Assembly: GCA_963790475.1 (NCBI GenBank)
Contig: CAWBOS010000006.1
Location: forward strand, 768,001 to 832,000
Length of the DNA: 64,000 nt
Direction of reading: 5' to 3'
Source: an uncultured delta proteobacterium
Lineage (GTDB): Bacteria > Desulfobacterota > RBG-13-43-22
Every line of letters starts with the position of its first letter. The first letter of the stretch is position 1. The notes beneath the pieces were generated by a model. It did not search any database and was not told the origin of the DNA. It was given only the letters and a program-made list of their open reading frames with translations. The position numbers and the translations under genes are program-made. Positions 6,192-58,744 of the stretch are shown piece after piece.

Positions 6192-6884
6192 ATGGACACT
6201 AAACCATTTGAGATCATTCCCGGAATTTATTGTGTGGGTGGTTCCGAACTCTCCCATCCCCAAGATGCCCTGGTTTATCTGATCAAAGGAGAAGGGAAGA
6301 CCGCGCTCATCGATTCCGGAGCGGGAAAGGGCTCGGCCGTGATCTGGGAAAATATCCGGGAAGCGGGAGTGAATCCGCAGGATCTGACCTATCTTATTCT
6401 AACCCATGGCCATGTAGACCATATTGGCGGGGCCTCCTTTTTCCAGGAACGTACCCGTTGCCTTACGGTTGCCCATGAATTGGATCAGGAGGCCATCGAG
6501 ACCGGGGATCCAGGTTTGACCGCCTCTTCCTGGTATGGCCTGAACCTACCCCGTCTTAAAGTCGATCGGGTATTAAAGGACAAGATCGAGGAACTTCCTA
6601 TGGGCCGAAAAGAAAATCTTATCTGTTTACACACCCCGGGTCACACCCCGGGATCGATTTCCCTTTACCTCGATCGACAGAAACTACGGGTCCTCTTCGG
6701 TCAGGATATCCACGGCCCTTTTTCCAAGGCTTTCGGATCCAACCTCAGTGATTGGAAACTTTCCATGGAGGAACTACTAGCCTTAAAGGCCGACATCCTA
6801 TGCGAAGGACATTTCGGTATCTTTCGACCGGCCCAAAAGGTGCAGAGCTATATCGAACAATACATGAAACAATATTTATCCTGA
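6192..6884 (+). CDS. MBL-fold metallo-hydrolase
   Basis: THGHVDHIGG, HTPGHTPG, CEGH. Confidence 0.92.
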   Translation: MDTKPFEIIPGIYCVGGSELSHPQDALVYLIKGEGKTALIDSGAGKGSAVIWENIREAGVNPQDLTYLILTHGHVDHIGGASFFQERTRCLTVAHELDQEAIETGDPGLTASSWYGLNLPRLKVDRVLKDKIEELPMGRKENLICLHTPGHTPGSISLYLDRQKLRVLFGQDIHGPFSKAFGSNLSDWKLSMEELLALKADILCEGHFGIFRPAQKVQSYIEQYMKQYLS

Positions 6885-7311
6885 AATCCAGTCCCCTTTA
6901 TTTCCTTAAATCTGACCAATGCTAACACAAATCCCCGTTTTAGGTTATTCTTGTAACTGCCGATATTATGGCCTTCTGTGGATTTCTACAGGAACACAAT
7001 TTGTCAATGTTAATATTCCAAATAAAATGTTCACAACGATCCTCCCTTGTCTGGAGCCAAGAGGCTGCTCACAAGGCCCTCATGCAGTGAGTAAAGGGGG
7101 ACGCTGGGACTAAAACAACTTATTTTTTATCTTTTTCTTATTTGTGACCCAGAATAACCGATTGATTCCTTGGTTACTCGGCAATCCGAAATCTAAATTC
7201 TGAAATGGTCTTTGGAAAATAGGGACACATCCGGGATTTTGATATTGCTTTGAAAAAGTCTTTAAACAAATAAGAGAGGGCGTCCTCTACCAAACGTAGG
7301 ATTTTCCCCTT

Positions 7312-7439
7312 TCCCGGTAGCAATGACAAAGGGGCCGCACCCTTTCTCATCCCGAAGAGGTCAGTTAAGTCCTTCTGCGCCGATGGTACTGCCTGGGCAT
7401 TCCCCAGAGGCGGGATGGGAGAGTAGGACGCCACCTGGA
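7312..7439 (+). rRNA. rrf: Degenerate full-length 5S rRNA-like copy A (probable pseudogene) with a short palindromic insertion
   Basis: CCCGGTAGC..GCACCC..CATCCCGAA..GTTAAGTCC..GCGCCGATGGTACTGC..GGGAGAGTAGGACGCCACCTGG follows the bacterial 5S pattern; mismatches in helix I and in the CCGAAC loop. Confidence 0.75.
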
Positions 7440-7611
7440 ATTAAAAAAAGTCCGTTTTCAATCCGCCCTGTTTTTCTTCTCAAAATTTTATCATTGATCC
7501 TGCATTTTTCTTGTTTTATACTTAAATAAAGGGTTGACCTGGTAAATAAAATATGAAGTTATCAAGTACTACCCGGAGAGACTTCCCCCGAACCACCAAA
7601 ATTCGCTAAAA

Positions 7612-7938
7612 GTGAGGAGCCGGCTTATGATAGAGTTCAATCCTTATGAAAAAGGTACTAGGGGATGGGGCTTCAACCCGATAATTTTCGAATTTCCTGA
7701 AACCCCGCCATTTTCAAAAAAGGATAGTCCCCAAAAAATACATATCACCAGAAGAGAAGTAGAAGTGTTGCAATGGTTACAACAGGGGAAGAGTTCCTGG
7801 GAGATATCTAAAATACTCGGTCTTAGTGAGAGGACGGTAAATTTCCATATCTATAATGTCATGGAAAAGATTAAGGCGGTAAATCGACTGCAGATGGTAA
7901 GCATTGCTTTGCGCTTGGGGCTTATTGATCTGAAATAA
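7612..7938 (+). CDS. Stand-alone LuxR-type HTH regulator (no ligand-binding domain)
   Basis: ITRREVEVLQW..GKSSWEISKILGLSERTVNFH..KIKAVNR. Confidence 0.85.
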   Translation: MRSRLMIEFNPYEKGTRGWGFNPIIFEFPETPPFSKKDSPQKIHITRREVEVLQWLQQGKSSWEISKILGLSERTVNFHIYNVMEKIKAVNRLQMVSIALRLGLIDLK

Positions 7939-8217
7939 ACCAATCCATCCGGCGCCCTTGCCTTTTTCCCAAACATAGATGGCCCACCTGATGAGACTCC
8001 TGTAATTTCTTACAGGTGTTTTTAAAATAATTAAACGTTAATAATTTACCATTTCTAAAACCGAATGTAATCATGGGGAGGGAACAATTTAGGCGTTGGC
8101 CCATCACTTTCTTTAATGATTTTAATCCTGCATAACCCCTTTTCGGATTTTTTGTGATTGAGATGGGGAGCATTTTCATATTTACGTATTTTTTTAAGAA
8201 GGGAGCCTTAAAAAAGA

Positions 8218-9384
8218 ATGGAAAAGTCAAACCGTGATGCTGTAATCGTCGCTGCTGTTCGGACACCCATTGGCAGGCGTGGCAAATCCCTGAGCCAGAC
8301 GCGGCCTGAAGACCTGGCGGCAGATGTGCTGAATGGAGTAATTCGACGCTCTGGCATTGATCCTGGTGAGGTGGAAGATATTATCATGGGGTGCGGTACG
8401 CCTACGGGTGAGCAGGGGGTGAATATCGGGCGTCTTTCCACCTTGATTGCCGATTTCCCGGTTGAAGTGCCTGCTGTTACGATCAACCGTATGTGTGCCT
8501 CTAGTGATCAGGCAACCCACTTCGCCACACAGGCTATTCTGGCGGGTGATCTGGACGTGGTCATTGCCGCTGGAATCGAGAGCATGAGCCGGGTTCCCAT
8601 GGGTTCCGATAGTGCCCCAAAATTCAGTAGACGGCTGGCCAAGAAATACTGGATCATTCCACAGGGTGAGTCTGCAGAACTTATGGCGGAAAAATGGCAG
8701 ATAAGTCGAGAAGAATTAGATGCCTATTCCCTCGAAAGTCACAGACGTGCTGCCCAGGCCCAGGACGAAGGGCGTTTTGATCGAGAAATCATGCCTCTTG
8801 AGATCGTTGGCCCTGAAGGAACCTCTGTTTTATTTGCTAAGGACGAAGGTCCACGCCGGGATACTTCAATGGACCAACTGGCAGGATTAGCTCCAGCGTT
8901 CAAGGAGGGGGGCAAAATCACTGCCGGGAATTCAAGTCAGATGAGCGATGGGGCGGCTGCTATCCTTTTTATGAAGCGGGAAAAGGCCAAGCGTCTGGGG
9001 TTAAAACCGAGGGCACGCATTATCGGCCGCGTGTCGGTCGGTTCTGATCCCACATTGCAGCTTTCCGGGCCTATCGTCGCTACAAAAAAAGTGCTCCAAA
9101 AGACTGGCCTTACGCTGAAAGACTTGGACGTCATCGAGGTGAACGAGGCCTTTGCCTCAGTGGTACTGGCTTGGGCTCGGGAGTTTAAACCGGATATGGG
9201 GAAAGTAAATCCCAACGGCGGAGCCATCGCCTTGGGTCATCCCCTGGGGGCGACTGGTGCCAGGATCATGACGACGCTACTGAATGAATTGGAGCGACGC
9301 GACGGACGCTACGGTCTCCAGACCATGTGTATCGGCCACGGACTGGCGAATGCCACAATTATTGAGCGAGAAGATGGTTTTTAA
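8218..9384 (+). CDS. Thiolase (acetyl-CoA C-acyltransferase)
   Basis: NRMCASS, NEAFA, GHPLGATG, MCIGHG. Confidence 0.95.
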   Translation: MEKSNRDAVIVAAVRTPIGRRGKSLSQTRPEDLAADVLNGVIRRSGIDPGEVEDIIMGCGTPTGEQGVNIGRLSTLIADFPVEVPAVTINRMCASSDQATHFATQAILAGDLDVVIAAGIESMSRVPMGSDSAPKFSRRLAKKYWIIPQGESAELMAEKWQISREELDAYSLESHRRAAQAQDEGRFDREIMPLEIVGPEGTSVLFAKDEGPRRDTSMDQLAGLAPAFKEGGKITAGNSSQMSDGAAAILFMKREKAKRLGLKPRARIIGRVSVGSDPTLQLSGPIVATKKVLQKTGLTLKDLDVIEVNEAFASVVLAWAREFKPDMGKVNPNGGAIALGHPLGATGARIMTTLLNELERRDGRYGLQTMCIGHGLANATIIEREDGF

Positions 9385-9386
9385 CC

Positions 9387-9453
9387 TAAGTTAGCCCTTC
9401 GGCCCTGATGGTGCTGTTCGGGCAACTGGGCGGGCGAGTAGAACACCACCCGG
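9387..9453 (+). pseudogene. 5S rRNA 3'-part relic, copy B
   Basis: AAGTTAGCCCTTC..GATGGTGCTG..GGGCAACTGGGCGGGCGAGTAGAACACCACCCGG, starting 2 nt after the thiolase stop. Confidence 0.65.
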
Positions 9454-9462
9454 TATTTTTTC

Positions 9463-9510
9463 AGCCCCTTTTCAATCCTCCGTTTCTCGGGATTGAAAAG
9501 GAGCTTTTTA
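9463..9510 (+). terminator. Intrinsic terminator
   Basis: CCTTTTCAATCC..GGATTGAAAAGG stem followed by a T-run. Confidence 0.75.
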
Positions 9511-9724
9511 TTTTTATCCTATTCAGTAGACCAAAGTTGTCCACTGAATAAAAGGGCTTTCTTGACTGCTGTGAACCGTGCGCTACTGGCGGTGATTGTG
9601 AATGTGGCTGCTGCAAGGCAGTGCCGAAAGAAGACAAGAAACCGAGCTGCTGAGGTGAGGATAGAGGGAGTCTATTAAAGAGACAGGGCCCCTCCTGGCT
9701 GGTAGAAAATCATGGAAAAATTAA

Positions 9725-9844
9725 AATAGCCAAGGGGCCACACCCGTTCCCATCTCGAACTCGTAAGTTCTAATCCCTTCTGCGCCGATGGTACTGCCTG
9801 GGCAGTCCTGCTGAGGCGGGATGGGAGAGTAGGACATCACCGGG
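9725..9844 (+). rRNA. rrf: Degenerate near-full 5S rRNA-like copy C (lacks the 5' strand of helix I; palindromic insertion)
   Basis: ATAGCCAAGGGGCCACACCCGTTCCCATCTCGAAC..GCGCCGATGGTACTGCC..GGGAGAGTAGGACATCACCGGG. Confidence 0.78.
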
Positions 9845-10031
9845 CTTTTTCTTTTTTGCTGCCCTTTGAACCCTCAGAAAAAAATTTCTCGGCGCTTTTT
9901 TCAAGCAGTATATGGAAACAGCAATTCCCCTTAGCTTCAAAATCAGACTAACCTCCTGAAAGGTAACCCCGCCCTTCCCTTTTTCAACCTTCCTTGCCTT
10001 TAAAATAATTCCGTTTTACAATGAGAACTAC

Positions 10032-13000
10032 ATGACCCCCCACAATTCCAGAGACCCCCTTTCATTCTTCCATCCCCTGATCCGAAAATGGTTCAGGGAA
10101 AGTATCGGGGTTCCTACCAACATACAGTCGCAGGCCTGGCCGGAAATTGCTTTGGGGAAACATGCCCTGATAACAGCTCCCACAGGGAGCGGCAAAACAC
10201 TTACCGCCTTCCTCTGGGCCATCAACCAACTGGTCACCGGAGCTTGGGAACCGGGTCGGACCCGTGTCCTCTATGTCTCCCCCTTAAAGGCTCTCAACAA
10301 TGATGTGCAACGCAACCTCATCAAACCGATTGATGAGCTTAAGGCCTTTTTCCTGAAGTCTGAGGAGAATTTCCCCCTCATCAGTGTGCTGACGCGAAGC
10401 GGCGATACCCCGACCGAAGATCGCCGGCAGATGTTGCGCCGCCCACCGGAAATCCTGATCACCACCCCGGAAAGTCTGAATATTCTCCTGAGTTCCCGAA
10501 ACGGCAGGGGATTACTGGGGGGCCTATCGACTGTCATTCTGGATGAAATTCATGCCGTGGTCGGCACCAAGCGGGGCACCCATCTCATTACCGCTGTGGA
10601 TCGGTTGGTTCTCCTTTCCGGTGAGTTCCAGCGCATCGCGCTGTCGGCTACGGTAAAGCCCCTTCCGATCGTGGCCGAATTTGTCGGCGGCTATAGGCTA
10701 TTGAACGGGGGTAAGACCTGTCATTATGAAAAAAGAAAAGTGGAAATTATCAGGTCAAAAGATAAGAAAGATTATTTGATTGAGGTCCGCTTTCCGCCGG
10801 AGGCCAGGGAACATCTGGTCGATGCCTCCTGGTGGCCGGCCCTGGCCGAATCCTTCAAAGAGGTTATCCTGGCCAATCGTTCCACCCTGCTTTTTGCCAA
10901 CAGCCGCAGGATTGCCGAAAAGGTTACCCGCCTGATCAACGAAGGAGGAGAAGAGGAATTAGCCTATTCACACCACGGCTCCCTTTCTCGCGAGATCCGT
11001 CTGGCCGTAGAACAGAGATTGAAGGCGGGTGAACTGAAAGCCATCGTGGCCACCAGCTCTCTCGAACTGGGCATCGATATCGGCGATCTCGACCGGGTGA
11101 TCCTTATCCAGGCTCCGCCCTCCATTTCATCGGCCATTCAGCGGATCGGACGATCCGGCCACAGGGTCGGCGGGTTGAGCCGCGGTCTTCTCTATCCCAC
11201 CCACGGCCGCGATTTTTTGAATGCCGCAGTCATCGCCGAAGGGGTCATGAGTCAGGATATCGAAGCCGTCAGACCCATCGAAAGCCCCCTGGATGTGCTG
11301 GCCCAGGTGATCATTTCCATGACCGGCCTTGAAGCATGGGATATAAATGAGCTCTTCTTTTTTATCAAGACCAGCACTCCCTATCATCACCTCTCCCGCC
11401 AACAATTCAATCTGGTGCTGGAGATGCTGGCCGGGCGGTATGCCGATACCCGGCTTCGGGAACTCAAGCCCCGTATCTCCATGGATAAGATCGATAACAC
11501 CCTTCAGGGGAAAGAAGGGGTGCTGCGATTGATCTATCTGTCGGGCGGCACCATTCCGGATCGGGGTTACTATGATCTTCGAATAGCCGATTCAAAATCC
11601 AAGATCGGCGAACTGGATGAAGAATTCGTCTGGGAACGGAGTATCGGAGATACCTTCACCCTGGGTGCCCAGGTCTGGCGTATCCAGAAGGTGACCCATA
11701 ACGACGTGGAGGTCAGTCCGGCCGAGGTCAAACCAGGTATTTTCCCTTTCTGGAGGGCCGAGGACCAGAATCGGGATTTCCACTTCTCGGAAAAGATCCT
11801 GCTGTTCCTGGAAAAATTTCATAAGCGGATCGATGCCCTTTCTTTCAAGGAGGAACTGGCCCGGAAATATTGTTTGGATGAAGCCGCCGTTATTGAGCTC
11901 ATCGATTTCTTGAAACGGCAAAAAGAGGCCACCAAAACCGACCTGCCTCATCGGCACCATCTGCTCATCGAGCATTTTCATGATCCGCTGAACACGGCCG
12001 AAGGCCGGCAGGTTATCCTCCATACGATCTGGGGAGGAAAAATCAACCGGCCCTTCAGCCTGGCCCTGCAGGCCGCTTGGGAAGATAAATATCACGCTCA
12101 TCTGGAAGTCATTCAGAATAACGATTGTATCCTATTGATCCTGCCCCATGAATTTTCGATTGGGGAGCTCTTTGCCCTGGTCAAACCGGAAAACCTGGAT
12201 AAGCTGCTTAGGCAGTCCCTGGAACAAAGCGGATTTTTCGGGGCTAAATTCAGGGAAAATGCCGGACGGGCCCTTCTGCTTCCCCGTTCCGATTTCAAGA
12301 GGCGCCTGCCCCTTTGGCTCAACCGGCTTCGATCCAAAAAGCTGATGGACGCGGTTATGGCCTATCCGGATTTTCCCATTCTTCTGGAAACCTGGCGTAC
12401 TTGCCTTCAGGATGAATTCGACCTGGAGAATTTAAAAAAACTATTGGAAGAAATCCGAAACGGTCAGATAAAAATCAGCGAGACCTTCACCTCGGCCGCT
12501 TCTCCTTTTGCCGAAGGCTTGATCTGGAAACAGACCAACACCTATATGTATGCCGATGATTCCCCCCTTTCCGGCAAGACCTCGGAGTTAAGTCAGGAAC
12601 TCTTGAAAGAAGTTGTCTTTTCTCATCGCCTCAGACCGCGGCTTCCCGAGAATCTGGTTCGATCCTTGGAAGCGAAACTTCAGCGTACAGCCCCTGGATA
12701 TGCCCCCAGATCAGCCCAGGATCTTTTGGACTGGATCAAGGAAAGGGTGTTGATCCCGGCCTCCCAGTGGCAGGAGCTGATGAGGACTATAGATCAAGAC
12801 CGTGATATTCCGGCCAGTGATATGGTGGACTTGATACAAGAAAAAATCATCTCCATTAAACTGCCCGCTGCCTCTATCCCTCTGGTCTGCGCCGTGGAAA
12901 ATTTACAACGCATCGTCATGGGGTTTAATCTCCGACAGGAAGAAGTTGATATCCGGGATGCCTGTTCAAATGGACCAATAAACGGACGAACCGTCCTTTT

Positions 13001-14540
13001 AATTGAGACTGTTTTTAAAAAATATTTTACTGAGCTGGAAGGACAGGAGGAAACCACGCCAGCGGACATTTTGCGGCAATGGCTTTCTTTTTATGGCCCA
13101 GTCGGCAAATCCTCTCTGAAAGAAATTCTGGGTCTGGAAGAATCTTATCTGGATGAGATTATCTCCGGCCTGGCGGAATCCCAAGATGTTGTCTTCGACC
13201 GGCTTACGGAAAAGGCCGAAGAAATGGAACTCTGTGACCGGGAAAACCTGGAAATATTGCTTAGAATGGCCAGAAAATCCCGGCAGCCCCTTTTCAAGGC
13301 CCTGGGCATCGATCATCTCCCCTTGTTCCTGGCGGCCTATCAGGGCCTGACCAAGCAGGGCGAATCGACCGAAGACCTGCAGCGGGTCCTGGATCAACTC
13401 TTTGGTTTTCCCTCTGAGGTTGAGGCCTGGGAAAAACACATTCTTCCGGCCCGACTATCCCCCTATTACGGCACCGGGTTGGACAATCTGAACCGGACCA
13501 GCGATCTGCTCTGGTTCGGCTGCGGAAAAAGAAAAATAAGTTTTTCTTTTTCTGATGATCTTGAACTCTTCCTCAATCAATACGGATATGATGACGAGGG
13601 GCAAACATCGGTTGAGCCCCTCCTGCCGGATGAACTGGCCGGTCTGCTGCCTCGAAAAATCGGACGATACAGTTTTTTTGATATAGCCCGATTTTCGAAT
13701 TTGGACAGCCGCGATTTGAGCAAAAAACTCTGGGACCTTTTCTGGAAAGGTTTGATTAGCAATGATACTTTCGCCACCCTTCGCCAGGGGATCTTAACCA
13801 AATTTGCTCCCCTGCCTCTAAAAAGAGAAGAGGGGCGGCCTTCCCGTTCGGCCTTCAACCGCTGGGTCTCCACCCGCCCCCTTTCGGGAAACTGGTATAT
13901 CCTGGACCGCGACTTTATAGAAAAAGATCCCATCGATGAAGCGGAGTTGGTCAAGGATCGGGTCCGTCAGCTTTTCCGACGCTACGGCCTGATCTTTCGT
14001 GAACTGTTGGCTAACGAACTGCCTTTGCTCCAGTGGAATAAAGTATTTAAGGCCCTGAGGCTCATGGAGCTCTCTGGAGAAATTTTATCGGGATATTTTT
14101 TTGAAGGGATTCCCGGTGTTCAATTTATTTCGCCGGAGGCCTTTAGGTTCTTAAACGAGCCTTTGCCGGATGAAGCGGTTTACTGGTTAAATGCCACAGA
14201 TCCGGCTTCCCTTTGCGGCCTCAAGTTGGAAGCCCTCAAGGGTAGGCTTCCCAGCCGCATTCCCTCCACCTATCTGGTCTATCAAGGCCATCGACTGGCC
14301 ATGCTTTCCCGCCGCAACGGCAGACACCTGGAAATTCTGGTTCCCCCTGATGATACCCATTTCCAGGACTACCTGGCTTTTTTCAAAGTTTTGCTGACCA
14401 GGGAATTCAGCCCTGAAAAAATCATCTCCGTTGAGAGGATCAACCAAAAACCCGCACTGGAGAGCGAATATGCCGACCTCCTTAAAGCCTTCGGCTTCAG
14501 CCGCTCGTATAAGGGATTGGAATTGGTCAGAAGGTACTGA
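10032..14540 (+). CDS. lhr: Lhr-family SF2 DEAH helicase, long form with C-terminal domain
   Basis: APTGSGKT, YVSPLKAL, ITTPESL, DEIH, HHGSLS, TSSLELGIDIG, QRIGRSGH; 1502 aa. Confidence 0.93.
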   Translation: MTPHNSRDPLSFFHPLIRKWFRESIGVPTNIQSQAWPEIALGKHALITAPTGSGKTLTAFLWAINQLVTGAWEPGRTRVLYVSPLKALNNDVQRNLIKPIDELKAFFLKSEENFPLISVLTRSGDTPTEDRRQMLRRPPEILITTPESLNILLSSRNGRGLLGGLSTVILDEIHAVVGTKRGTHLITAVDRLVLLSGEFQRIALSATVKPLPIVAEFVGGYRLLNGGKTCHYEKRKVEIIRSKDKKDYLIEVRFPPEAREHLVDASWWPALAESFKEVILANRSTLLFANSRRIAEKVTRLINEGGEEELAYSHHGSLSREIRLAVEQRLKAGELKAIVATSSLELGIDIGDLDRVILIQAPPSISSAIQRIGRSGHRVGGLSRGLLYPTHGRDFLNAAVIAEGVMSQDIEAVRPIESPLDVLAQVIISMTGLEAWDINELFFFIKTSTPYHHLSRQQFNLVLEMLAGRYADTRLRELKPRISMDKIDNTLQGKEGVLRLIYLSGGTIPDRGYYDLRIADSKSKIGELDEEFVWERSIGDTFTLGAQVWRIQKVTHNDVEVSPAEVKPGIFPFWRAEDQNRDFHFSEKILLFLEKFHKRIDALSFKEELARKYCLDEAAVIELIDFLKRQKEATKTDLPHRHHLLIEHFHDPLNTAEGRQVILHTIWGGKINRPFSLALQAAWEDKYHAHLEVIQNNDCILLILPHEFSIGELFALVKPENLDKLLRQSLEQSGFFGAKFRENAGRALLLPRSDFKRRLPLWLNRLRSKKLMDAVMAYPDFPILLETWRTCLQDEFDLENLKKLLEEIRNGQIKISETFTSAASPFAEGLIWKQTNTYMYADDSPLSGKTSELSQELLKEVVFSHRLRPRLPENLVRSLEAKLQRTAPGYAPRSAQDLLDWIKERVLIPASQWQELMRTIDQDRDIPASDMVDLIQEKIISIKLPAASIPLVCAVENLQRIVMGFNLRQEEVDIRDACSNGPINGRTVLLIETVFKKYFTELEGQEETTPADILRQWLSFYGPVGKSSLKEILGLEESYLDEIISGLAESQDVVFDRLTEKAEEMELCDRENLEILLRMARKSRQPLFKALGIDHLPLFLAAYQGLTKQGESTEDLQRVLDQLFGFPSEVEAWEKHILPARLSPYYGTGLDNLNRTSDLLWFGCGKRKISFSFSDDLELFLNQYGYDDEGQTSVEPLLPDELAGLLPRKIGRYSFFDIARFSNLDSRDLSKKLWDLFWKGLISNDTFATLRQGILTKFAPLPLKREEGRPSRSAFNRWVSTRPLSGNWYILDRDFIEKDPIDEAELVKDRVRQLFRRYGLIFRELLANELPLLQWNKVFKALRLMELSGEILSGYFFEGIPGVQFISPEAFRFLNEPLPDEAVYWLNATDPASLCGLKLEALKGRLPSRIPSTYLVYQGHRLAMLSRRNGRHLEILVPPDDTHFQDYLAFFKVLLTREFSPEKIISVERINQKPALESEYADLLKAFGFSRSYKGLELVRRY

Positions 14541-14614
14541 TAGGCGGGTGTGGATAAAACTTTTTCAGGCTGAAACAATTTATTTGTTCTACGATCGATA
14601 ACCTGAAAAAATTT

Positions 14615-14686
14615 GTCTCCTCATAGCCGAGGGTAATGCCTGCGCAGTCCTGCTGAGGCGGGATGGGAGAGTAGGCTGCCACCGTG
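14615..14686 (+). pseudogene. 5S rRNA 3'-part relic, copy D
   Basis: GCCGAGGGTAATGCCTGCGCAGTCCTGCTGAGGCGGGATGGGAGAGTAGGCTGCCACCG, closely similar to the 3' half of copy C. Confidence 0.7.
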
Positions 14687-14703
14687 AATTTTTATAAAGC
14701 CCC

Positions 14704-15456
14704 TTATTGTGCCAGTAATCCCGTTTCTTCGGAACTGGCCAAAGGGCTGACGGCCGAAGTCGGCTTCCTGGCCGCTCCGAAATAGATGATGGCGGTGTTC
14801 CCCCTGGAAGAGATGATGGCCGGAAAATCGCCCTTCCCAGGCGAATGCCGATTGAACTTAACCCCGGCCAATTCTATATTGGTGAATCCCTGGTTCTCCA
14901 AAAGAACCCTCAAATCGGCAGGAGAGATAAAAAGGGGCCAGTGATGGGTCCCCCGTGGCATGAACCTGATGAGGATTTCCCCGAGCCAGATGATAAACAA
15001 TTTGGACCAGAAGGTTTTATTGAAGGTGTCAAAGAACAACCATCCACCTGGTTTGAGCACCCGGTATATCTCACCAAGGGTAAGACCCTTATCAGGCATA
15101 TGCTCCAACACATCAAAACAGGTGACGGCATCCATTGTCTGGTCGTTGAAGGGAAGCCGTTCGGCGGTGCATAGATTATACTCGATATCCAGATTGTTTT
15201 CCCTGGCATGTTCTCGAGCCTGCTGGAGGGATTCTGCCATGATATCTGTTCCGAAAACCACCGCCCGGCGTTGGGCCAGGAATTCACAGGCATACCCGCC
15301 GCCGCAGCCCACATCAAGCACTTTAACCCCGTCCCACCCATCCAGAAAATGGTCAAAATGGGCAAACCGTACCGGGTTCAGTTTATTTAAAAAGATATGG
15401 TCCCCACTTGGGGGCCACCAATGATAAGATCCGCCATGTAAATCTTTCTGATCCAT
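14704..15456 (-). CDS. UbiG-like SAM-dependent O-methyltransferase
   Basis: LNPVR, VLDVGCGGG, FDVLEH, LKPGG, PRGTH; start probably MDQKD. Confidence 0.85.
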   Translation of the reverse strand: MDQKDLHGGSYHWWPPSGDHIFLNKLNPVRFAHFDHFLDGWDGVKVLDVGCGGGYACEFLAQRRAVVFGTDIMAESLQQAREHARENNLDIEYNLCTAERLPFNDQTMDAVTCFDVLEHMPDKGLTLGEIYRVLKPGGWLFFDTFNKTFWSKLFIIWLGEILIRFMPRGTHHWPLFISPADLRVLLENQGFTNIELAGVKFNRHSPGKGDFPAIISSRGNTAIIYFGAARKPTSAVSPLASSEETGLLAQ

Positions 15457-15460
15457 TAAT

Positions 15461-16021
15461 CTATTTCCTCCCCATTTCCAATGTCTGAACACCTCTCTTG
15501 ATGTCAACTGGGATTTTCCCGTTCCTTCTTATCTTTTCAAAAGCAGTAAAAAACCATTTGAATCTTTTCGTAACATGAAAAATTAGATACACCAACAAGA
15601 CCCAGGTTATTTTGTCGTGTATCTCCATATAAAATCCACGGCTTAAGGCCGGGCCTCCGCTCAACTTGATAAACCATGAGATATACCCGGTGACAGCCAC
15701 TAAAATAAAAATTATCGTCATGATAATCGCTTGCTGGTTTTTAAAGACTAACTTCTTCTTCCGTACTACCGCCTTATACCATTTCCAGTGCAGGATGATA
15801 TGAAAGACCATGCCAATGGATACGAGGACGACTGAAATTAAATGAATGTCCGACCAGTTGAAATAATTTAAACCTAAAACTAAATTGTTTGTATCTATTT
15901 CTCCGTGATGCCCCATGTGGTAGCCGATTTGTATCCAAAGGCCGGAAAAAACCATGGCCGACCCAAACAACAGCAGTCCAAGATTTATTAAAAAACTAGG
16001 TATCGGATTTTTCTTTAACAT
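15461..16021 (-). CDS. DUF4405-type cytochrome b-like membrane protein
   Basis: Four TM segments with conserved His (WSDIH, FHIILHWKW, EIH, FHV). Confidence 0.75.
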   Translation of the reverse strand: MLKKNPIPSFLINLGLLLFGSAMVFSGLWIQIGYHMGHHGEIDTNNLVLGLNYFNWSDIHLISVVLVSIGMVFHIILHWKWYKAVVRKKKLVFKNQQAIIMTIIFILVAVTGYISWFIKLSGGPALSRGFYMEIHDKITWVLLVYLIFHVTKRFKWFFTAFEKIRRNGKIPVDIKRGVQTLEMGRK

Positions 16022-26055: not shown

Positions 26056-27462
26056 GAGCCTCTTGCAAAAGTCTATTTTTAGGGAATAGACAAGCATAAA
26101 GAGTGAGCCTCAGCGGTGGTTCTGTGTTAAGATGATGTTTAGAAAGAACACAAAAAAACACAGGAGACACCGATGAAGCTCTGGAAAAAAGTATCATGGT
26201 TAAGGGGTAGATTGCAACAAGGTTTATTTTCCGATTTAGAAGAATGTTGGGAACAGCCTTTGACTGAAAAAGAGGAACGGCTGGTGACGATATTGGAACT
26301 GGTTGAGGTTGAAAGATATGTTCCCCGGAGTTCTTTAAATCAGTGGATGGGGAGGAAGATCCTTGAGCGCCAAGCGATAGCGCGGGCTTTTGTGGCCAAG
26401 ACGGTCTATAACCATTCCTTCACCAGATCAACCATTGAACATTTGAAAACGACGTCTAATGTAAGACGCATCTGCGGGTTCGAAAAGGTATCCGACATTC
26501 CCTCTGAGGCCACTTTTTCCAGGGCCTTTGCGGAGTTTGCCGAAGGGGGGCTTGGCGAAAAAGTTCACGAAGCCCTGGTGGAACGTTGTTTAAAGCCGGA
26601 ACTGGTTGGTCATATATCCCGAGACGCAACGGCCATAGAAGGTCGGGAAAAGCCGACTAAGAAGCCTGTAAAAGAAAAGCCTGCGCCGAAGAAGAGAGGA
26701 CGTCCAGTCAAGGGAGAACTCCGTGATTCCAAGGAAGACAAACGCTTGACCAGGCAACGAGAGCAATCAGTTGAAGAGGCCTTAAAAGAATTGCCGGTTT
26801 ACTGCGACGTAGGGACCAAGAAGAACTCCAAAGGGTACAAAGAGACCTGGGTCGGGTATAAACTCCATGCCGATGTTAATGATTGCGGATTGCCGGTGAG
26901 TGTCGTCTTGACCGCAGCATCGCTTCATGACAGCCAGGTCGCTATACCGTTAATGAAGATGACCAGTTCCAAGGTGGATTATCTTTATGATTTGATGGAT
27001 GCCGCTTATGACGCTGGATCTATCTATGCAATCAGCAGAGCTCTGGGACATGTGCCCATTATCGACAAGAACTTCCGCGGTAAGGATGTGATCCCTATGG
27101 CTCCCCACGAGGCCAGAAGATTTAATGGAAGGACAGCATCAGAACGGTTCAATAGCCGGTTAAAAGAAGAGTTCGGTGCCAAGAATGTCATGGTCCGAGG
27201 AGCCTTGAAAGTCAATCTCCATCTCATGTTTGGCGTCCTGGCGCTCTTTGCGGATCAGTTGATAAAGTTGGCTTCCTGAGTAAATTTTCAAAGAACGGGG
27301 TGAAAAGTTCAGGTCAGGAGGAGAACTATGCCTGAAAATTGTTACCAAAGTCTCAAATCTGACTATCGTCGTTAAGAAAGACCCAAAATTTCTAAATCGA
27401 CTGGGATAACTGCCTGCTGATATATTTCATCATGCAGTTTTTATAAGTTTTGCAAAAGGCTC
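26056..27462 (+). mobile_element. Intact-looking DDE insertion sequence (IS5/IS1182-like), 1407 bp
   Basis: Terminal IRs GAGCCTCTTGCAAAA / TTTTGCAAAAGGCTC; 4-bp direct repeat TTAT on both sides. Confidence 0.9.
26173..27279 (+). CDS. DDE transposase
   Basis: PSEATFSR, SRDATAI, GYKLH, HDS, MDAAYD, ERFNSRLK. Confidence 0.93.
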   Translation: MKLWKKVSWLRGRLQQGLFSDLEECWEQPLTEKEERLVTILELVEVERYVPRSSLNQWMGRKILERQAIARAFVAKTVYNHSFTRSTIEHLKTTSNVRRICGFEKVSDIPSEATFSRAFAEFAEGGLGEKVHEALVERCLKPELVGHISRDATAIEGREKPTKKPVKEKPAPKKRGRPVKGELRDSKEDKRLTRQREQSVEEALKELPVYCDVGTKKNSKGYKETWVGYKLHADVNDCGLPVSVVLTAASLHDSQVAIPLMKMTSSKVDYLYDLMDAAYDAGSIYAISRALGHVPIIDKNFRGKDVIPMAPHEARRFNGRTASERFNSRLKEEFGAKNVMVRGALKVNLHLMFGVLALFADQLIKLAS

Positions 27463-37608: not shown

Positions 37609-38679
37609 GGGACGTTGTTCACTTTATTCACTGTTGATAGTTTTTTGCCTCTATTCTTTTAATGGCCATGGCCACTCCCGTAGTCCCAATTCCAACCAGG
37701 CGAGCGATTTCGGCCATTGGAATCCCGAGATCTCGGTTAAAATAGAAACAGAGTCTTTTCCGTAGTTCCGATACTGCTTTTCGTTGGCCCCCTGATATTA
37801 ACTCGATTTCCTTGACCCCGGCTTCATGACATCTTTCTTTGATAATCTTCGATAACGATCCAGCTTTCTTTCGAGCTCGTATTTGGCGGGTCAACTTTTG
37901 ATCTGCTTCTTCCAGAATTCCCTGGACGAAATCTCCATCTCCTAATATCCGTTCATCATAAGTCTCGGATTCGCCCTTCTTTCTTAGAGATAAAACTCGC
38001 GACCATCCCCCCAGACTCCGAATCAATCCGCCACCGACCAATTCTGGCCTTTGTCCAAGGCCCTTTCCTGCCGCCACAAATTCCCGGTAAGCTTGAACGG
38101 CCTTTCTCTTTTTGGACCCAAAAAACCCGAGCACAAAATCTTTTTCCTGAAAATCGTTTGTCCGCTTGCCGGATAAAATCCCGTGGCCGCACCAGGGGTA
38201 GTTTTCCAATTCTTCAAGATCATTAACCAATCTAGCCCTAAGAGGATTCAGGTGGATATATCGGACCAGTTCCAGAAGGTACGGATCCAGGTCACAAATA
38301 ATTGATTTGTATCGGTTCTGAAACAGATGCCCGAATCTCCGATATTTCCGGTTATACCCAATGGCATAACCGGTTAACAAACGTCGCATAAAGGTTGGAA
38401 GACCCGCCGGTCCGCTGATTAATAACAAATGGACATGATTATCCAACAGCGCCCAGGCCAAAATAAGGGTTCCGGTTTCCTTAACCAAGGAATTGATCCT
38501 ATCGAGAAAATCCTTTCGATCTTCCGCATCCTGGAAAATATTACTTCCTTCTATCCCTCGTACCATAATATGGTGCAGGGTTCCGGGGATATCTAACCGA
38601 GCTTTTCGAGGCATAATTCTTTATAAACAGTTTTGCTCTTAATGTCAAAATTAATTGTGAATTAAATGAACAACGTCCC
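37609..38679 (-). mobile_element. Y1/RAYT-transposase element with 23-bp terminal inverted repeats
   Basis: GGGACGTTGTTCACTTTATTCAC (37609-37631) vs reverse complement of 38657-38679, 21/23 identical. Confidence 0.75.
37628..38614 (-). CDS. REP-associated tyrosine transposase (HUH Y1) with C-terminal DnaA-C-like HTH
   Basis: MPRKAR..HHIMVRG, NHVHLL, GHLFQNRY, YIHLNP. Confidence 0.92.
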   Translation of the reverse strand: MPRKARLDIPGTLHHIMVRGIEGSNIFQDAEDRKDFLDRINSLVKETGTLILAWALLDNHVHLLLISGPAGLPTFMRRLLTGYAIGYNRKYRRFGHLFQNRYKSIICDLDPYLLELVRYIHLNPLRARLVNDLEELENYPWCGHGILSGKRTNDFQEKDFVLGFFGSKKRKAVQAYREFVAAGKGLGQRPELVGGGLIRSLGGWSRVLSLRKKGESETYDERILGDGDFVQGILEEADQKLTRQIRARKKAGSLSKIIKERCHEAGVKEIELISGGQRKAVSELRKRLCFYFNRDLGIPMAEIARLVGIGTTGVAMAIKRIEAKNYQQ

Positions 38680-38693
38680 CCTTTAGAGAAGCC

Positions 38694-41018
38694 TCAAACG
38701 CCTTCACGCAGTGTCCAGAACATCTCCCGCACTTGGTCATCCGTGACGAGGTCTTGCCGAACGGGTATCCGGTCCCGCCAGTGCCCGCTGCCCTCTTCAT
38801 GATTCCGCGATCCCTCTTCGCGCTCGGCGATATCCTCATCGAGCCGCCTAATCTCATACTCAAGATCGAGGCCGTACTCAGTACTGAGTCTGTCGAGTGA
38901 CTCCCGCAGCCCTGTCAGCTCATCAACGGTCGTACAGTCGAAACGCTCATCCCTAGCGCCGTTCTGTACGTAGTGCCGAAGCGCCGTCTCTAGTTGCTTT
39001 TCATCGGCATCGCTCCATTCGAATGCCTTCGCGGGGAACGCGAGGAGGTCGAGCCAGTCGTCTGCCCTCGCGTAGTCGAGTGCATCTACGACCCCGGTCA
39101 AAAGCCTGCGGTACACTTCGTGCCCACCGTGGTCGAGGAACCAGCGATTCTCCGCAATCGCGGCCAGTAGGCGTAGCACTGGTCCGAAATCGACGCCCTG
39201 CTGCTCCCACTCTCGGACAAGTTTCCCCGCCAGTTGAGAGGCCATCGCGGCAAGCTGTGTTGAATTATGAACTGCGGCGATTTTCGCAAGGAACCCCACC
39301 TTGCCTTCATAGCTCATATCAATCGGGTAGCCCCTATGAGTACCGTCCGGCATCTTCTCCCAGCGCATGGAGGGGCCCTCCAGCAGGCGTGACAACGGTC
39401 GACAAAGAAGATCGGTATTCGTCGTTAGAACATTGCTGAGTTCGCTGTCAGGTTGGGCAGCGGCGAGTTCCCAGAGATTCACAATCTGCTTGAATCGAGC
39501 GGCCGAATTAAGAAGGTCTTCGGCGATTTCGCGCTCGTTGCTGATCATCGAGGCCACGAAGTCCCGAACAGAAGGGTTAAGGAAGCTCGCGTACCCCTTG
39601 CTATACGAGAGAAAGGCGCCTTCCAGCTCCTGAAGAGCCCGGTGGAAATCTCCTGCACGAATCTGCTGATGGTACTTGGCGGCACTGTACCGGTGGAGCG
39701 CTATGAAGGCCGGTTCTAGGTCGACCGTATCCGACCATCCGCCGAACGTGTTGAAGCTGAGGAGAACGTGGCGCGCCGCGCCCGAGATTTGGTTGTGGAA
39801 CGCGTGGGCCCAGATGGTGTCCGGTGACTCTATCAGGGCCAAGACGTGTGTCCTGTAGCTATCCGCCGGAACTTGTCTCAGGCGCGAATAAGCTGATAGC
39901 CACTCGATCAGTCTAGGATTGAAGTGCTCGTGCTTGATAATATCGAGGAAGAAGTCCTCCTTCAGCAGTTCGTCTTTGTACTCCTGTGGGAGGTCACTGA
40001 AATAGAGATGGTTATAGAGAAGCCGGGCTCGGGTCCCATACGAATAGTCGCCCAGCTGGAGGATGCAGCGATGGTCTAAGATCGGACTGTGGGCAAGCCG
40101 CTCCGAGATTTGGAGAGCCCCGCTCAGGATATGTTCCCGCGTAGTGAGAATGAATCGAGACTGGGGGGACCGGCGGACCATCTCCATGAAATCCACCATC
40201 GCTGTATCTTGATTTCTGCCAAGGTATTCGCGGCGGTCGCCCAAGAATGTCTGGCCGAGGAAGTCGTCGTAGTAGAAGATTTGCTTGCGCGCGGACTTGA
40301 AGAGATCCTTCGCCTCGGAAATCTCCGCTTTGATCGCGACCGGCTCGTATCCGTCTTCCAAATGTGAGTAGAGGAGCATCTCGGCCAGTGTGGTCTTGCC
40401 GATCCCTGGGGGGCCCGTCACAACGACAATGCGGGTTTCGTTGAGGATCTCAGTCGCCCGCGGGTAAGCATCGCTCTTGACGAACAGAGGAAGCTTGCGA
40501 CGTAGGCGATCAACCTCGAAATCTGTCTGGCACAACGTTGCATTGTGAAGCACTCGATCGAGAACGCTCGTGCTGGTGAGCCATAGTTTAAAGTTGGCGC
40601 GCTCGACCTCCGAATGGCGGCTGAGCAGGCCTTCGATATCGTCTGCGCCGAGGACGTCCCGAACACTCAACACGAACGGCTGAAGCGCTGTGACGATTTC
40701 GTCCTTATTGCCGGGAGTGAGGCTGACAGAGGTTGCTACCACATAACGGGTCGGGCCCAAGCGCTGGATCTTTGGGAGTTCTCCGGCACGCAGATTCGCC
40801 AGCAACTTGGCGAACCCAGAGTTCGCGAAGTGCTTGCACTGGATGATTGTCGCACCATCGTCTGCCGGCGCATACCGCAAGTCGATCCCACGATCACGGC
40901 CGCTGCGGAAGGCTTCGAGCGCGATCTTCCACTCCGCCTGTAGAAGATCGCGGATCAACTCCTCAAAGTCCTGACCTGAGAGAGATTTGAAGTCGTAACG
41001 TGGCATTCGCTGCACCAT
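38694..41018 (-). CDS. Mrr-like restriction endonuclease fused to a STAND (nSTAND3-like) NTPase; candidate defence protein
   Basis: FEEL..DRGIDL..IQCKH nuclease; GPPGIGKT Walker A; YYDDFLG Walker B; ILTTRE; visibly GC-richer than flanks. Confidence 0.85.
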   Translation of the reverse strand: MVQRMPRYDFKSLSGQDFEELIRDLLQAEWKIALEAFRSGRDRGIDLRYAPADDGATIIQCKHFANSGFAKLLANLRAGELPKIQRLGPTRYVVATSVSLTPGNKDEIVTALQPFVLSVRDVLGADDIEGLLSRHSEVERANFKLWLTSTSVLDRVLHNATLCQTDFEVDRLRRKLPLFVKSDAYPRATEILNETRIVVVTGPPGIGKTTLAEMLLYSHLEDGYEPVAIKAEISEAKDLFKSARKQIFYYDDFLGQTFLGDRREYLGRNQDTAMVDFMEMVRRSPQSRFILTTREHILSGALQISERLAHSPILDHRCILQLGDYSYGTRARLLYNHLYFSDLPQEYKDELLKEDFFLDIIKHEHFNPRLIEWLSAYSRLRQVPADSYRTHVLALIESPDTIWAHAFHNQISGAARHVLLSFNTFGGWSDTVDLEPAFIALHRYSAAKYHQQIRAGDFHRALQELEGAFLSYSKGYASFLNPSVRDFVASMISNEREIAEDLLNSAARFKQIVNLWELAAAQPDSELSNVLTTNTDLLCRPLSRLLEGPSMRWEKMPDGTHRGYPIDMSYEGKVGFLAKIAAVHNSTQLAAMASQLAGKLVREWEQQGVDFGPVLRLLAAIAENRWFLDHGGHEVYRRLLTGVVDALDYARADDWLDLLAFPAKAFEWSDADEKQLETALRHYVQNGARDERFDCTTVDELTGLRESLDRLSTEYGLDLEYEIRRLDEDIAEREEGSRNHEEGSGHWRDRIPVRQDLVTDDQVREMFWTLREGV

Positions 41019-53883: not shown

Positions 53884-56800
53884 TTATTTTCTTATACCTG
53901 TAAACTTGGTTTTAAAACTCCTATCCGATCCATAGGTGGTTCCAGCACTATTGGTAGCTACAAGGCGGTAATGATATACGGTATAAGAACTCAGTCTGGT
54001 AATACCGGCAGACACCGCCATATTGCTTGTGCCGCTTCCAGATGAGGTAACGGTCGTGTTATTACCATAAGAAGTAGTCCGCCCCCACTGAAAAACATAA
54101 GTCGTGGATAAGCCGTTGGGATTGACCGTCCCGTTCAGAGTGGCGGAACTCCAGGGTACCAAGGTGGCTGAGCCGGTTACGACCATAGGCTGATTTATTC
54201 CCGTACTTAAACTAAAGGTTGCGGTAACACTCACATTCGCGTTCATGGTCACCTGGCAGGTAGTCGACATCCCGGAACAGCCGCCTGACCAACCGTTGAA
54301 TACGGAATTGGAATCCGGTGAGGTCGTCAAGGTGACGGCAGTGCCGGAAGGAAAGGTGGTCCCGGTCGGATTGACGGAAACACTTCCGCTCCCCGTCCCG
54401 ACTTTGCTTACTGTTAGGGTATAATTGGTAATGGTAGAAAATGTTGCGCTTATAGTATGGTTGGCGCTAACCGCAGAGAAAGTATAGGAAGCAATCGCCC
54501 CCTGAGACACTTCGTCCACGGTTACATTGGCAATCTTGTAACCGGCATTGGCTGCGATCGTAAAGGTCTGGTTAGCCCCGGACTGGACACTGATCCCTCC
54601 CGAGGGAGAAATAGCCCCGCCCGTTCCGGCCGTGGCGGTGATGGTGTAGATTTGGTTGTTGTTATTGGTAAAACTTTTATCTACTCCATAGGTGGTCCCT
54701 GCACTGTTGGTGGCCTTAAGGCGATAATGATAAACGGTATTAGACCTCAGCCTGGTTATATTGGCCGAAGAGGCGACATCGCTTGTGCCGCTTCCGACCG
54801 TGGTAACGGCCGTGGTACTACCGTAAGAAGTGGTCCGCCCCCATTGAAAAACATAGGTCGTGGATAAACCCTTTGGATTGACTGTACCGTTCAACTGGGC
54901 GGAACTTGAGGGTATCAATGTGGCTGATCCGGTAACAACTGTCGGTGGATTAGTTGCCGTACTGGAATTGAATATCGCGGTAACACTCACATTCGCGTTC
55001 ATGGTCACCTGGCAGGTAGTCGACATCCCGGAACAGCCGCCTGACCAACCGTTGAATACGGAATTGGAATCCGGTGATGCTGTCAGGGTGACCTGGGTGC
55101 CGGCGGGAAAGGAGGTTCCGGTGGGGTTGGAAGAGACACTGCCGCTTCCCGTCCCGGCATTGGTTATTGTAAGAGTGTATGTGTTGGAAACAAATGACGC
55201 AACGATAGTATGGTTGGCGTTTACGGTCGAGAAGGTATAAGAACTGATTGCTCCCCGAGAAACGCGGTCCACAGTCAGGTTGGCAATCTTGTAACCGGCA
55301 TTGGCTGCGATCGTAAAGGTCTGGTTAGCCCCGGACTGGACACTGATCTCTCCCGAGGGAGAAATAGCCCCGCCCGTTCCGGCCGTGGCGGTGATGGTGT
55401 AGATTTGGTTGTTGTTATTGGTAAAACTTTTATCTACTCCATAGGTGGTCCCTGCACTGTTGGTGGCCTTAAGGCGATAATGATAAACGGTATTAGACCT
55501 CAGCCTGGTTATATTGGCCGAAGAGGCGACATCGCTTGTGCCGCTTCCGGCCGGGGTAACGGCCGTGGTACTACCGTAAGAAGTGGTCCGCCCCCATTGA
55601 AAAACATAGGTCGTGGATAAACCCTTTGGATTGACTGTACCGTTCAACTGGGCGGAACTTGAGGGTATCAATGTGGCTGAGCCGGTAGCGACCATGGGCG
55701 GATTTAATACAGCGCTGAAGGTTGCGGTAACACTCACGTTCGAGTTCATGGCCACCTGACAGGTGGTCGTGCTCCCGGAACAGGCCCCCGACCAGCCTCC
55801 GAAGGTGGAATTGGCGTCAGGTGCGGCAGTCAAGGTGACTTTGGTGCCGGCCGGAAAAGAGGATCCGGTAGGGTCGGTAACAACACTACCGCTGCCCGTC
55901 CCATTTTTGAATATGTTCAGGGTATAGTTGGGAATGGTTGCGAAGGTTGCGTTGATAGTATGGTTGGCGGCCACCGTTTGAAAAGTGTAAGAGGTGATCG
56001 CCCCTTGGGATACGCTGTCTACCAGGACACTGGAAATTGTATAGCCGGAATTAGGGGCGATGGTAAAGCTTTGATTGGCCCCGGACTGGACACTAACCCC
56101 CCCCGAGGGAGAAATGGTTCCGCCGGTTCCGGCCGAAGCGGTGATGGTGTAGGTTTTAAGGTTGAAAGTTGCCGTGACGGAGACAATGGAATTCATCATT
56201 ACCTGACAGGTAGTCGAATTCCCGGAACAACCGCCGCCGGACCAGCCGCTGAATACGGAATTGGCATCCGGTAAGGCGGTTAGGGTAACCTGCGTCCCGG
56301 AGGAAAAGCTGGCCCCCGTCGGACTGGTCGAAACCGTGCCGCTGCCCGTCCCATTTTTGAATATGTTCAGGTTATAGTTGGGAATGGTCGTAAAGGTCGC
56401 GCTTATGGTGTGATTAGCAGTCACCCCTGTGAAGGTGTAAGAGGAGATCACCCCTTGGGATGCGCCATCGACCAGGACGTTGGAAATTGTATAGCCGGAA
56501 TTAGGGGCGATGGTAAAGCTTTGATTGGCCCCGGATTGGACATTGGTCACCCCCGATGGGGAAATGGATCCACCCGTTCCGGCCGAGGCGGTGATGGTGT
56601 AGGTCTTAAGGTTGAAAGTTGCCGTGACGGAGACAATGGAATTCATCATTACCTGACAGGTAGTCGAATTCCCGGAACAACCGCCGCCGGACCAGCCGCT
56701 GAATACGGAATTGGCATCCGGTAAGGCGGTTAGGGTAACCTGCGTCCCGGAGGAAAAGCTGGCCCCCGTCGGACTGGTCGAAACCGTGCCGCTGCCCGTC

Positions 56801-58563: not shown

Positions 58564-58632
58564 GACAGCATCCCCATTCTCAAGCAAGAAGGTTATTATT
58601 CAAACACCAGCTACAGCATGAGGATGCTGTGC

Positions 58633-58720: not shown

Positions 58721-58744
58721 GACTTGGATTCCAGTATTCATTAA

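Follow-up and report, generated by a model that had tools for sequence, protein, structure and literature searches.

Decayed 5S rRNA gene-terminator units at the boundaries of variable gene blocks in a family of delta proteobacteria

What are four sequences resembling 5S ribosomal RNA (rRNA) genes doing among ordinary protein genes, in a region that carries neither 16S nor 23S? The question is raised by a 64,000-nucleotide (nt) stretch of DNA from an uncultured delta proteobacterium (assembly GCA_963790475.1, contig CAWBOS010000006.1, positions 768,001 to 832,000), hereafter the window, which lies on an 860-kb contig (C6) of a 6.34-Mb assembly, the genome under study (G000). That genes are captured at tRNA genes and in integrons is familiar, and an earlier reading of this DNA, the original prediction, had proposed that full and partial 5S copies bracket cargo genes like attL/attR pairs, the cargo having been added repeatedly at a 5S gene either by a recombinase acting in trans or by crossover anchored in homology. 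Here, the locus is compared with a set of 21 genomes of its bacterial family (labels G0xx; genera g1, which includes G004, g2, with G014, and g4, with G016) and with a wider sample, 151 genomes from the same phylum. The observation holds, and it extends further than the window alone shows; to judge from the sequences, the gathering of genes at 5S-derived units is supported by comparison, and the mechanism proposed for it is putative. With moderate confidence, we read the locus as part of a variable region 3' of an rRNA operon, whose gene blocks would be shuffled by homologous recombination between 5S-terminator repeats.

Matches were collected with the Rfam model RF00001 (gathering score 38 bits) and with an nhmmer profile made from the family's own 5S copies and run on the whole 6.34-Mb genome. 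By the family profile, the assembly contains exactly 6 loci related to 5S (window coordinates unless C6 is given):

7313-7439, + strand: copy A, a full-length variant-type 5S pseudogene (Rfam 54 bits, E 1.7e-8, full model)
9387-9452, + strand: copy B, the 3' part of a 5S gene (about positions 50-117) without the variant insertion (nhmmer E 1.6e-5)
9724-9844, + strand: copy C, a variant-type 5S pseudogene without about the first 9 nt
14626-14705, + strand: copy D, the 3' part of a variant-type 5S (about positions 67-117) with a trace of the left arm of a terminator
C6:694925-695017, + strand: copy E, a fifth copy about 80 kb upstream, found with the family profile
C6:835350-835464, - strand: the true 5S gene (99.8 bits), 3.3 kb past the end of the window

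Copy C is matched both by nhmmer and by Rfam (40.1 bits at 9726-9835, E 8e-5, model positions 11-110), and copy D by nhmmer at 14609-14684 (E 8.5e-10). The covariance-model check that had been proposed for these sequences therefore gave significant matches to A and C, both above the gathering score, though B and D were not reported by RF00001 even at E<=10. In BLAST alignments, B is 77% identical to the true 5S over 93 nt, C is 94% identical to D over 50 nt, and A is 83% identical to C over 113 nt. Copies A-D span 7.4 kb, all on the + strand, in the order A, luxR, thiolase, B, C, lhr, D, and an Rfam scan found no 16S or 23S gene in the window; in all of these points, as in deriving each copy from a unit made of a 5S gene plus its terminator, the original prediction was right. 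Since all six loci of the genome are clustered within 140 kb on one contig, the pattern is not due to chance. A, C, D and E carry an insertion, about 11 nt long, in the region of helix IV and loop D, which is absent from the true 5S and from B; copy A has, besides this insertion, a AGGTCAGT change in helix III. On the opposite strand stands the true 5S, at a distance of 52-60 kb from A-D and of 140 kb from E, so that the array is inverted relative to the operon.

Mis-assembly at an rRNA repeat, a danger already foreseen for this locus, is unlikely, because the copies differ mutually by 6-25% and because the same junction types recur in relatives that were assembled separately. Public contigs over 6800-15200, from four DNA runs, are 108-832 nt long each and none bridges a 5S copy. 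A second rRNA operon is found in the last ~1.9 kb of another contig of the same genome (C15, 640505-642368), where it is cut by the contig end; its 16S with the leader is 97.9% identical to that of the C6 operon, and tyrS lies ahead of it, an order also seen in G014 and G016. The 23S-5S end of this operon is unassembled, and a further true 5S, with possibly more units, is therefore missing from the assembly.

The copies were then considered as RNA genes, in a base-pair test of 20 non-true copies from 10 genomes aligned to the true 5S on the Rfam structure. Substitutions are as frequent at paired positions (179/1326, 13.5%) as at unpaired ones (127/970, 13.1%), and where a base pair has changed it is mostly broken (113 pairs, against 43 kept, 7 of them by a change on both sides), which indicates that the copies are non-working 5S genes, evolving as pseudogenes. 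Compared with the true 5S, 5 of 34 pairs are broken in A and 5 of 31 in C, and the recurrent variant motif AGGTCAGT, as read from the sequences, undoes 2 of the 6 helix III pairs, with no compensating change. Helices I-V are thus not kept by compensation in these copies, and for A and C neither linkage to a 23S gene nor a stand-alone unit with its own promoter and terminator was found. It is very improbable that the copies are functional RNAs, be it alternative 5S rRNAs or modules of 5' or 3' untranslated regions (UTRs) that stabilize or regulate the mRNAs of their neighbors, the alternative that the original prediction had kept in reserve and that fails because the 5S fold is not conserved. 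Such a role would find some support in a UCCCGC-NNNN-GCGGGA hairpin which, like AGGTCAGT, recurs in many copies of several genera, with a conserved stem and a variable loop; features similar to these two are found in G068, from another family. Against it, besides the equal rates and the uncompensated motif, 72% of the changed pairs are broken, the orientation to the neighboring genes is inconsistent, many copies are truncated, and single-sequence folds are no better than those of shuffled sequences (z from -2.1 to +0.5, an uninformative range, the true 5S itself missing its known shape). RNAalifold, run on 14 variant copies, proposed a long-range helix foreign to 5S, UUCCCAUCUC/GGGAUGGGAG, with hardly any covariation (term -0.21); the true 5S can pair nearly likewise, and the helix was treated as an accident of the 5S sequence.

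The terminators behind the units have had a different fate from the 5S bodies. In the alignment of terminators, a standard pair is present in 96.1% of 306 cells, and in the 14 non-true rows the changed pairs are 22 kept and 10 broken, as against 43 and 113 in the 5S body (Fisher p 2e-5, a value overstated since the copies are related). This contrast indicates that the terminator is under selection while the 5S fold is not. A hairpin with its T run is retained by 15 of 24 non-true copies or pieces, and in the window by B alone:

9463-9515, + strand: complete terminator following B, a homologue of the one at the true 5S, with a hairpin of -21.4 kcal/mol and a T run
7447-7465, + strand: terminator remnant behind A, the left arm of an rrn-type terminator; the right arm is gone and no hairpin folds

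The terminator behind B probably ends the luxR-thiolase transcript. Behind D only the left arm is left and behind C no rrn-type terminator is recognizable, so that three of the four terminators of the window array are lost. The traces of one terminator arm that had been described behind all four copies are therefore confirmed for A and D, whereas B keeps a complete hairpin rather than one arm and the arm of C is unconvincing.

The same units are found in relatives. A screen of the 21 family genomes with RF00001 at E<=0.01, in which matches below 90 bits were counted as low-scoring, gave matches in 15 genomes and low-scoring ones in 10. Six loci hold the 23S-5S end of an operon together with downstream DNA, and five of them carry 1-5 copies or fragments within 14 kb; at the sixth, in G014, the contig stops 4 nt short of the position of the copy in G016. 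The copies that lie 3' of the true 5S, on its strand, are as follows:

G008: three full copies
G016: two copies
G007: a full copy with four pieces
G009: a full copy with one piece
G011: one copy

Their ages are mixed, a young copy of 86.5 bits being found beside an old one of 32 bits, and many brackets in the relatives run from one full-length copy to another. Two copies are chimeric, G010_b with a true 5' and a variant 3' part and G016_c with the reverse arrangement, and these point to recombination between the true and variant types. The genes between copies differ from genome to genome (G007, G008, G009, G010, G011 and G016 all have different cargo) and include a molybdenum oxidoreductase/FmdE/4Fe-4S/HxlR group, luxR-thiolase, CoA-transferases, a sigma70/DUF3795/Ogt-AlkA group, two chemoreceptors, a broken penicillin amidase, PIN, HEPN/nucleotidyltransferase and MazF modules, and a block with an ERCC4 nuclease; for many of them the homologue in G000 is absent or located elsewhere, and synteny breaks fall at the copies. 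The penicillin amidase is a pseudogene of four consecutive open reading frames (ORFs) on locus L017 (G008:C65, 8385-11028, - strand), between two 5S-like copies.

In the window, too, the copies mark the boundaries of gene blocks, as had been claimed. The blocks consist of the following features:

7494-7522, + strand: promoter-like site of luxR-thiolase (consensus scan), in an intergenic stretch conserved in G008 and G010
7612-7938, + strand: small LuxR/GerE regulator (Pfam GerE 1.4e-21), 81-83% amino acid identity to G008 and G010
8218-9384, + strand: thiolase of the acetyl-CoA acyltransferase family (Pfam Thiolase_N, Thiolase_C), 92-94% amino acid identity to G008 and G010
9994-10022, + strand: promoter-like site of lhr, TTGCCT-17-TACAAT (consensus scan), conserved in G011 and G012 without an upstream 5S copy
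10032-14540, + strand: lhr, an Lhr-type DEAD/H helicase of 1502 amino acids (Pfam DEAD, Helicase_C, DEAD_assoc, WH_Lhr)

Copy B starts immediately 3' of the thiolase stop codon. The most informative block is lhr, which has 72-86% nt identity to 8 relatives; in all 8, the lhr locus with flanks of 1.5 kb contains no 5S-like sequence, and lhr therefore reached its place between C and D only in the lineage of G000. With the closest relatives, G011 and G012 (85-86% nt identity), the homology extends from about 9990 to 14540-14634, that is from the promoter to 95 nt past the stop codon, and it stops where C and D begin (in G012, at about 14634). The flanks of lhr in relatives match regions of G000 that adjoin 5S units or synteny breaks. 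Taken together with the other cassettes lying between copies in relatives, these loci provide the empty site or different cargo that a history of gene addition had led the original prediction to expect. Immediately 5' of luxR-thiolase stands copy A in G000, the true 5S in G008 and a 5' piece (-2 to 41) in G010, and the three junctions resemble a single original spacer that deletions have shortened to varying degrees. On its other side, D is abutted by a class I methyltransferase gene (14704-15507, - strand) which has an inverted paralogue, 74% identical in nt, near the end of the window that faces the true 5S (61229-61933, + strand); the pair may be an old inverted duplication or mark the endpoints of an inversion.

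Outside the family, extra low-scoring copies were found in G070, G106, G152 and G068, among the 151 phylum genomes. G070 is the clearest of these cases, with toxin-antitoxin cassettes that each end in a 5S piece, a spacer and a terminator. Its order is true 5S, a DUF433/DUF5615(PIN) pair, a 3' piece, two ORFs, a 5S-like copy, a Phd/YoeB pair and another copy; the 3' piece has 1 mismatch in 51 nt to the true 5S, and in every unit a spacer persists along with a terminator whose changes are compensatory. Of the 5S-like copies in this genome, two (locus L030, G070:C3, 4875-8477) bear different GC-rich palindromic insertions (GGCACAGGC...GCCTGTGCC) in the same loop; the palindrome recurs just 3' of both copies and looks like a small element of the repetitive extragenic palindrome (REP) or miniature inverted-repeat transposable element (MITE) kind. 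A pattern search for the variant hairpin in species genomes returned 43 loci, in just 3 of which a 5S-like copy lies at the pattern site, and the remaining ones were set aside as chance or unrelated. The hairpin is otherwise limited to records of deltaproteobacterial metagenome-assembled genomes (MAGs) and a few metagenome contigs. The latter contain 6 matching loci, of which the 5 examined (without L108) have the same layout, in which copies 1.3-1.6 kb apart enclose single genes, again without an integrase. The variant signature has 0 matches on viral contigs, and plasmid and phage records match the query only partially, no record covering 80% of it. On two of the loci, L109 (1936-2943) and L110 (12-443), a Y1/DnaA_C gene adjoins a 5S-like copy; as a candidate enzyme it was dropped, since G000 has 4 homologues and none is beside a 5S copy.

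Could the units be attachment sites of a site-specific recombinase? The arrangement of a full copy, a block and a 3' piece, on which the original prediction was built, recurs in the family in five instances, two in G000, two in G007 and one in G009, and is seen once in a very fresh form in G070, where the piece is the one that differs at 1 of 51 nt. The 3' pieces start at 5S positions 45, 50, 54, 58 and 67, within a span of 23 nt, the 5' pieces end at 41, 46, 63, 77 and 87, and across the genomes no junction motif is common to the breakpoints, so that a fixed att core is disfavored. Furthermore, no integrase or recombinase domain was found in the 12 ORFs of the interval and its flanks or in the 36 further ORFs of the window, in agreement with what had been noted for the interval. 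Among the 71 cassette ORFs of relatives none encodes an integrase, and one has the C-terminal domain of Mu transposase; the 17 tyrosine-recombinase matches of G000 all lie on contigs other than C6, and serine recombinases of the resolvase type have no match in the genome. Integrase-less cassettes, cis-mobilizable or integron-like, that use the 3' part of 5S as att site and are served by an enzyme encoded elsewhere are therefore a rather improbable explanation: the recurrent bracket, the narrow range of starts, the hybrid G010_b, which is built as an attL would be, and the tyrosine recombinases on other contigs speak for them, and they are opposed by the absence of a shared breakpoint or junction motif, by the 5' pieces and full-to-full brackets that also occur, by the lack of an integrase in all 71 cassette and 48 window ORFs and of recombinases on C6, and by the missing viral and partial plasmid and phage matches. 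Likewise, strict attL/attR pairing does not hold, because A has the insertion and B has not, so that the two are not a duplicated pair, and because the breakpoints vary. Of the marks of an integrase-borne island, the locus shows an empty site or other cargo in relatives, and lacks the integrase and the single core with a fixed breakpoint.

Signs of exchange between genera come from cassettes that are more alike than the genomes that carry them. The baseline of identity was taken from the gyrB and recA loci; pyruvate kinase and FadB-like proteins encoded in the window were dropped for this purpose, neither being universal in the family. The comparisons are:

G014 (g2) with G016 (g4): cassette 90.6-99.6% identical in 500-nt windows over ~4.4 kb from the true 5S to the next copy, the last 492 nt 100%; baseline 73-78% upstream of 16S and 73.6-74.1% at gyrB and recA
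G004 (g1) with G016: 92.1% over 2911 nt, then 85-87%; baseline 75.0% (gyrB)
G011 with G016, second cassette: 81.5-84.5%, a weak excess; baseline ~74%
G010 with G016: 73-78%, no excess; baseline 73.8% (recA locus)

The G004 cassette lies inside a 192-kb contig and no rRNA operon is adjacent in the stretches examined, and it therefore runs no risk of being a chimera made through an rRNA operon.

How these observations fit together may be described as follows. The copies are dead units, each a 5S gene with its terminator, and are part of a variable region which is found across the lineage and begins where the rRNA operon ends; blocks of accessory genes sit between the units, each with its own promoter and many using the terminator of the unit, while the 5S part decays and the terminator stays. 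The units would serve as portable homology, and recombination of units with one another or with the true 5S would give rise to duplications, deletions, inversions and exchanges of blocks, including between genera, with no need for an integrase of the region's own. The array of G000 (A-D and E), parted from the true 5S by a rearrangement, is an old, inverted and decaying part of this system. For gene gathering at 5S as originally predicted, the comparisons with relatives bring support, and as a putative mechanism homology-anchored recombination fits better than a site-specific recombinase.

Several points weigh against shuffling by recombination between the units. Recombination events have not been observed directly, and neither a circular nor an alternative junction was seen. 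The homology, just ~120-170 nt at 75-95% identity, is a poor substrate for RecA, and the presence of the variant insertion across genera also fits vertical inheritance with gene conversion. The strongest case of exchange, between G014 and G016, may come from a contig that is a chimera assembled across the rRNA operon, and the G004 case, free of this risk, is a single one. The fivefold recurrence of the bracket with starts at 45-67 is tidier than truncation at random would give, and it is the main hint of a directed process. As for the window itself, lhr is 85.6% identical between G000 and G011, at the genome baseline (82.6-87.9%, recA and gyrB loci), which implies that this block moved within the lineage and was not imported, and luxR-thiolase, 85% identical between G000 and G010 with 80.7% at the recA locus, shows no excess; the sequences of the two blocks give no sign of recent import.

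Some of these points would also suit passive relics, that is, ancestral duplications of 5S and terminator between which ordinary insertions, deletions and inversions put genes, the copies taking no part in gene gain and terminators being kept where they are used. The pseudogene-like evolution of the 5S bodies, the decay of both positional orthologues E and G004_c16a, the ordinary identity of the window blocks and the A|luxR junctions of G000, G008 and G010, which resemble the progressive loss of one spacer, are all in keeping with such a history. It is nevertheless an unlikely one in view of the strong turnover of cassettes between close relatives with synteny breaks at the copies, of a near-identity between genera that is restricted to one cassette, with a true copy on one side and a variant copy on the other, of young copies beside old ones, which suggest continued birth, and of the same layout in a second family with different insertions.

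A bolder proposal goes beyond shuffling by homologous recombination: the 5S-plus-terminator units would be the sites of an undescribed cassette-capture system at the ends of rRNA operons, free of an integrase or serviced in trans, active in at least two families of the phylum, whose cassettes cross between genera by using the most conserved DNA as landing homology. We regard this proposal as tentative and somewhat doubtful.

A last candidate is a swapping of 3' tails driven by a nuclease. Of the 21 family genomes, 8 carry one copy of a short gene for an XPF/Hef-like nuclease (ERCC4 + HhH), a gene that few bacteria have, and the ERCC4 block that lies 3' of the true 5S of G000 is found in G007, G009 and G011 as well. 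A selfish or structure-specific nuclease might cut 5S, repair from incoming DNA would replace the 3' end, and the old tail would be pushed downstream; 3' tails do accumulate downstream of full copies, and in genus g1 all 5 single-copy ERCC4/Hef-like genes (G000 C6:832319-832678, just past the right end of the window; G007:C84; G009:C27; G011:C299; G001:C64) are 0.9-3.6 kb from a 5S or 5S-like copy. This swapping of tails is extremely unlikely: the nuclease was not found in G008, G010 and G016, which all have arrays, it lies elsewhere in G014 and G017 and, in G015, on a small contig of a genome without a 5S match, and most relics are full-length rather than tails. Moreover, XPF/Hef nucleases are structure-specific and not sequence-specific, which also weighs against it.

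Where, then, does this region stand among known systems? Islands at tRNA and tmRNA genes are known to undergo tandem accretion and to give rise to integrase-less derivatives (cis-mobilizable elements, CIMEs). With these the present arrays share a full RNA gene with a 3' duplicate, serial repeats in the same orientation and accessory genes between them; they differ in lacking an integrase, a fixed core and identical direct repeats, in their 5S target, in full copies that are mostly pseudogenes, and in the additional 5' pieces. Integrons are characterized by IntI, attC sites and serial arrays of cassettes. Here, too, serial co-oriented modules are closed by a structured repeat, carry toxin-antitoxin or accessory cargo and have one fixed anchor, but there is no IntI and no attC, the cassettes have their own promoters and either orientation, and the repeats derive from rRNA. 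In particular, no tyrosine recombinase is present on the contig and the repeats are of 5S origin, no attC-model search having been made.

The closest published case that was found is hypervariable region 2 (HVR2) of SAR11, in which the flanking 23S and 5S genes were read as homologous recombination sites that spread variants of the region (2007, PMC2217521). Both cases have a variable accessory block against rRNA genes, and variable genes directly against rRNA genes are indeed found here. The SAR11 region is described there as one island between two working genes of a split operon, whereas here serial islands are separated by extra dead 5S-terminator copies and lie downstream of an intact 16S-23S-5S operon or, in G000, have moved away from it. 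Excess identity of the HVR2 type is seen between G014 and G016 and between G004 and G016, weakly between G011 and G016, and neither between G010 and G016 nor in the window blocks. In E. coli, according to a report by Stenum et al. [quoted passage not shown] Both cases have an insert behind 5S that closes with a second copy of the 3' end of 5S, after which comes another terminator, in E. coli on a small scale at the end of an rRNA operon; the E. coli repeats measure 18-19 bp around a short sRNA, and those described here 50-135 nt, or full length, around 1-8 kb of variable protein genes. An unlinked 119-bp 5S sequence is mentioned in Francisella (PMC3479022); it is likewise a 5S-derived sequence without linkage to 23S, and orphans of this type appear there as single and conserved, unlike the decaying arrays bounding variable blocks found here. 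Searches of the full-text literature, supplementary files aside, yielded no account of bacterial cassettes bounded by arrays of 5S pseudogenes.

As homology anchors, rRNA genes have been proposed once, in SAR11. If the reading given here is true, a serial array of dead 5S-terminator units would be a simple, enzyme-independent route by which accessory genes, including toxin-antitoxin pairs, regulators and redox enzymes, gather and cross between fairly distant relatives. There are practical consequences as well: low-scoring 5S matches near rRNA operons are easily misannotated as extra 5S genes, and 5S-like copies break metagenome assemblies exactly there, as in G014.

Other features of the window are worth recording. 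Its middle part encodes a protein with a Y1 (IS200-like) transposase domain and a DnaA C-terminal helix-turn-helix (37628-38614, - strand), an nSTAND3 NTPase (38694-41018, - strand) and a DDE transposase (DUF772/DDE_Tnp_1; 26173-27279, + strand), the last two suggesting further mobile or defense-related content. Towards the right end, a c-di-GMP-I riboswitch (58632-58723, - strand, 85 bits) lies directly 5' of the gene for a 1567-amino-acid protein (53884-58587, - strand) with eight InlB-type B repeats and an fn3 domain, probably a surface or adhesion protein controlled by c-di-GMP.

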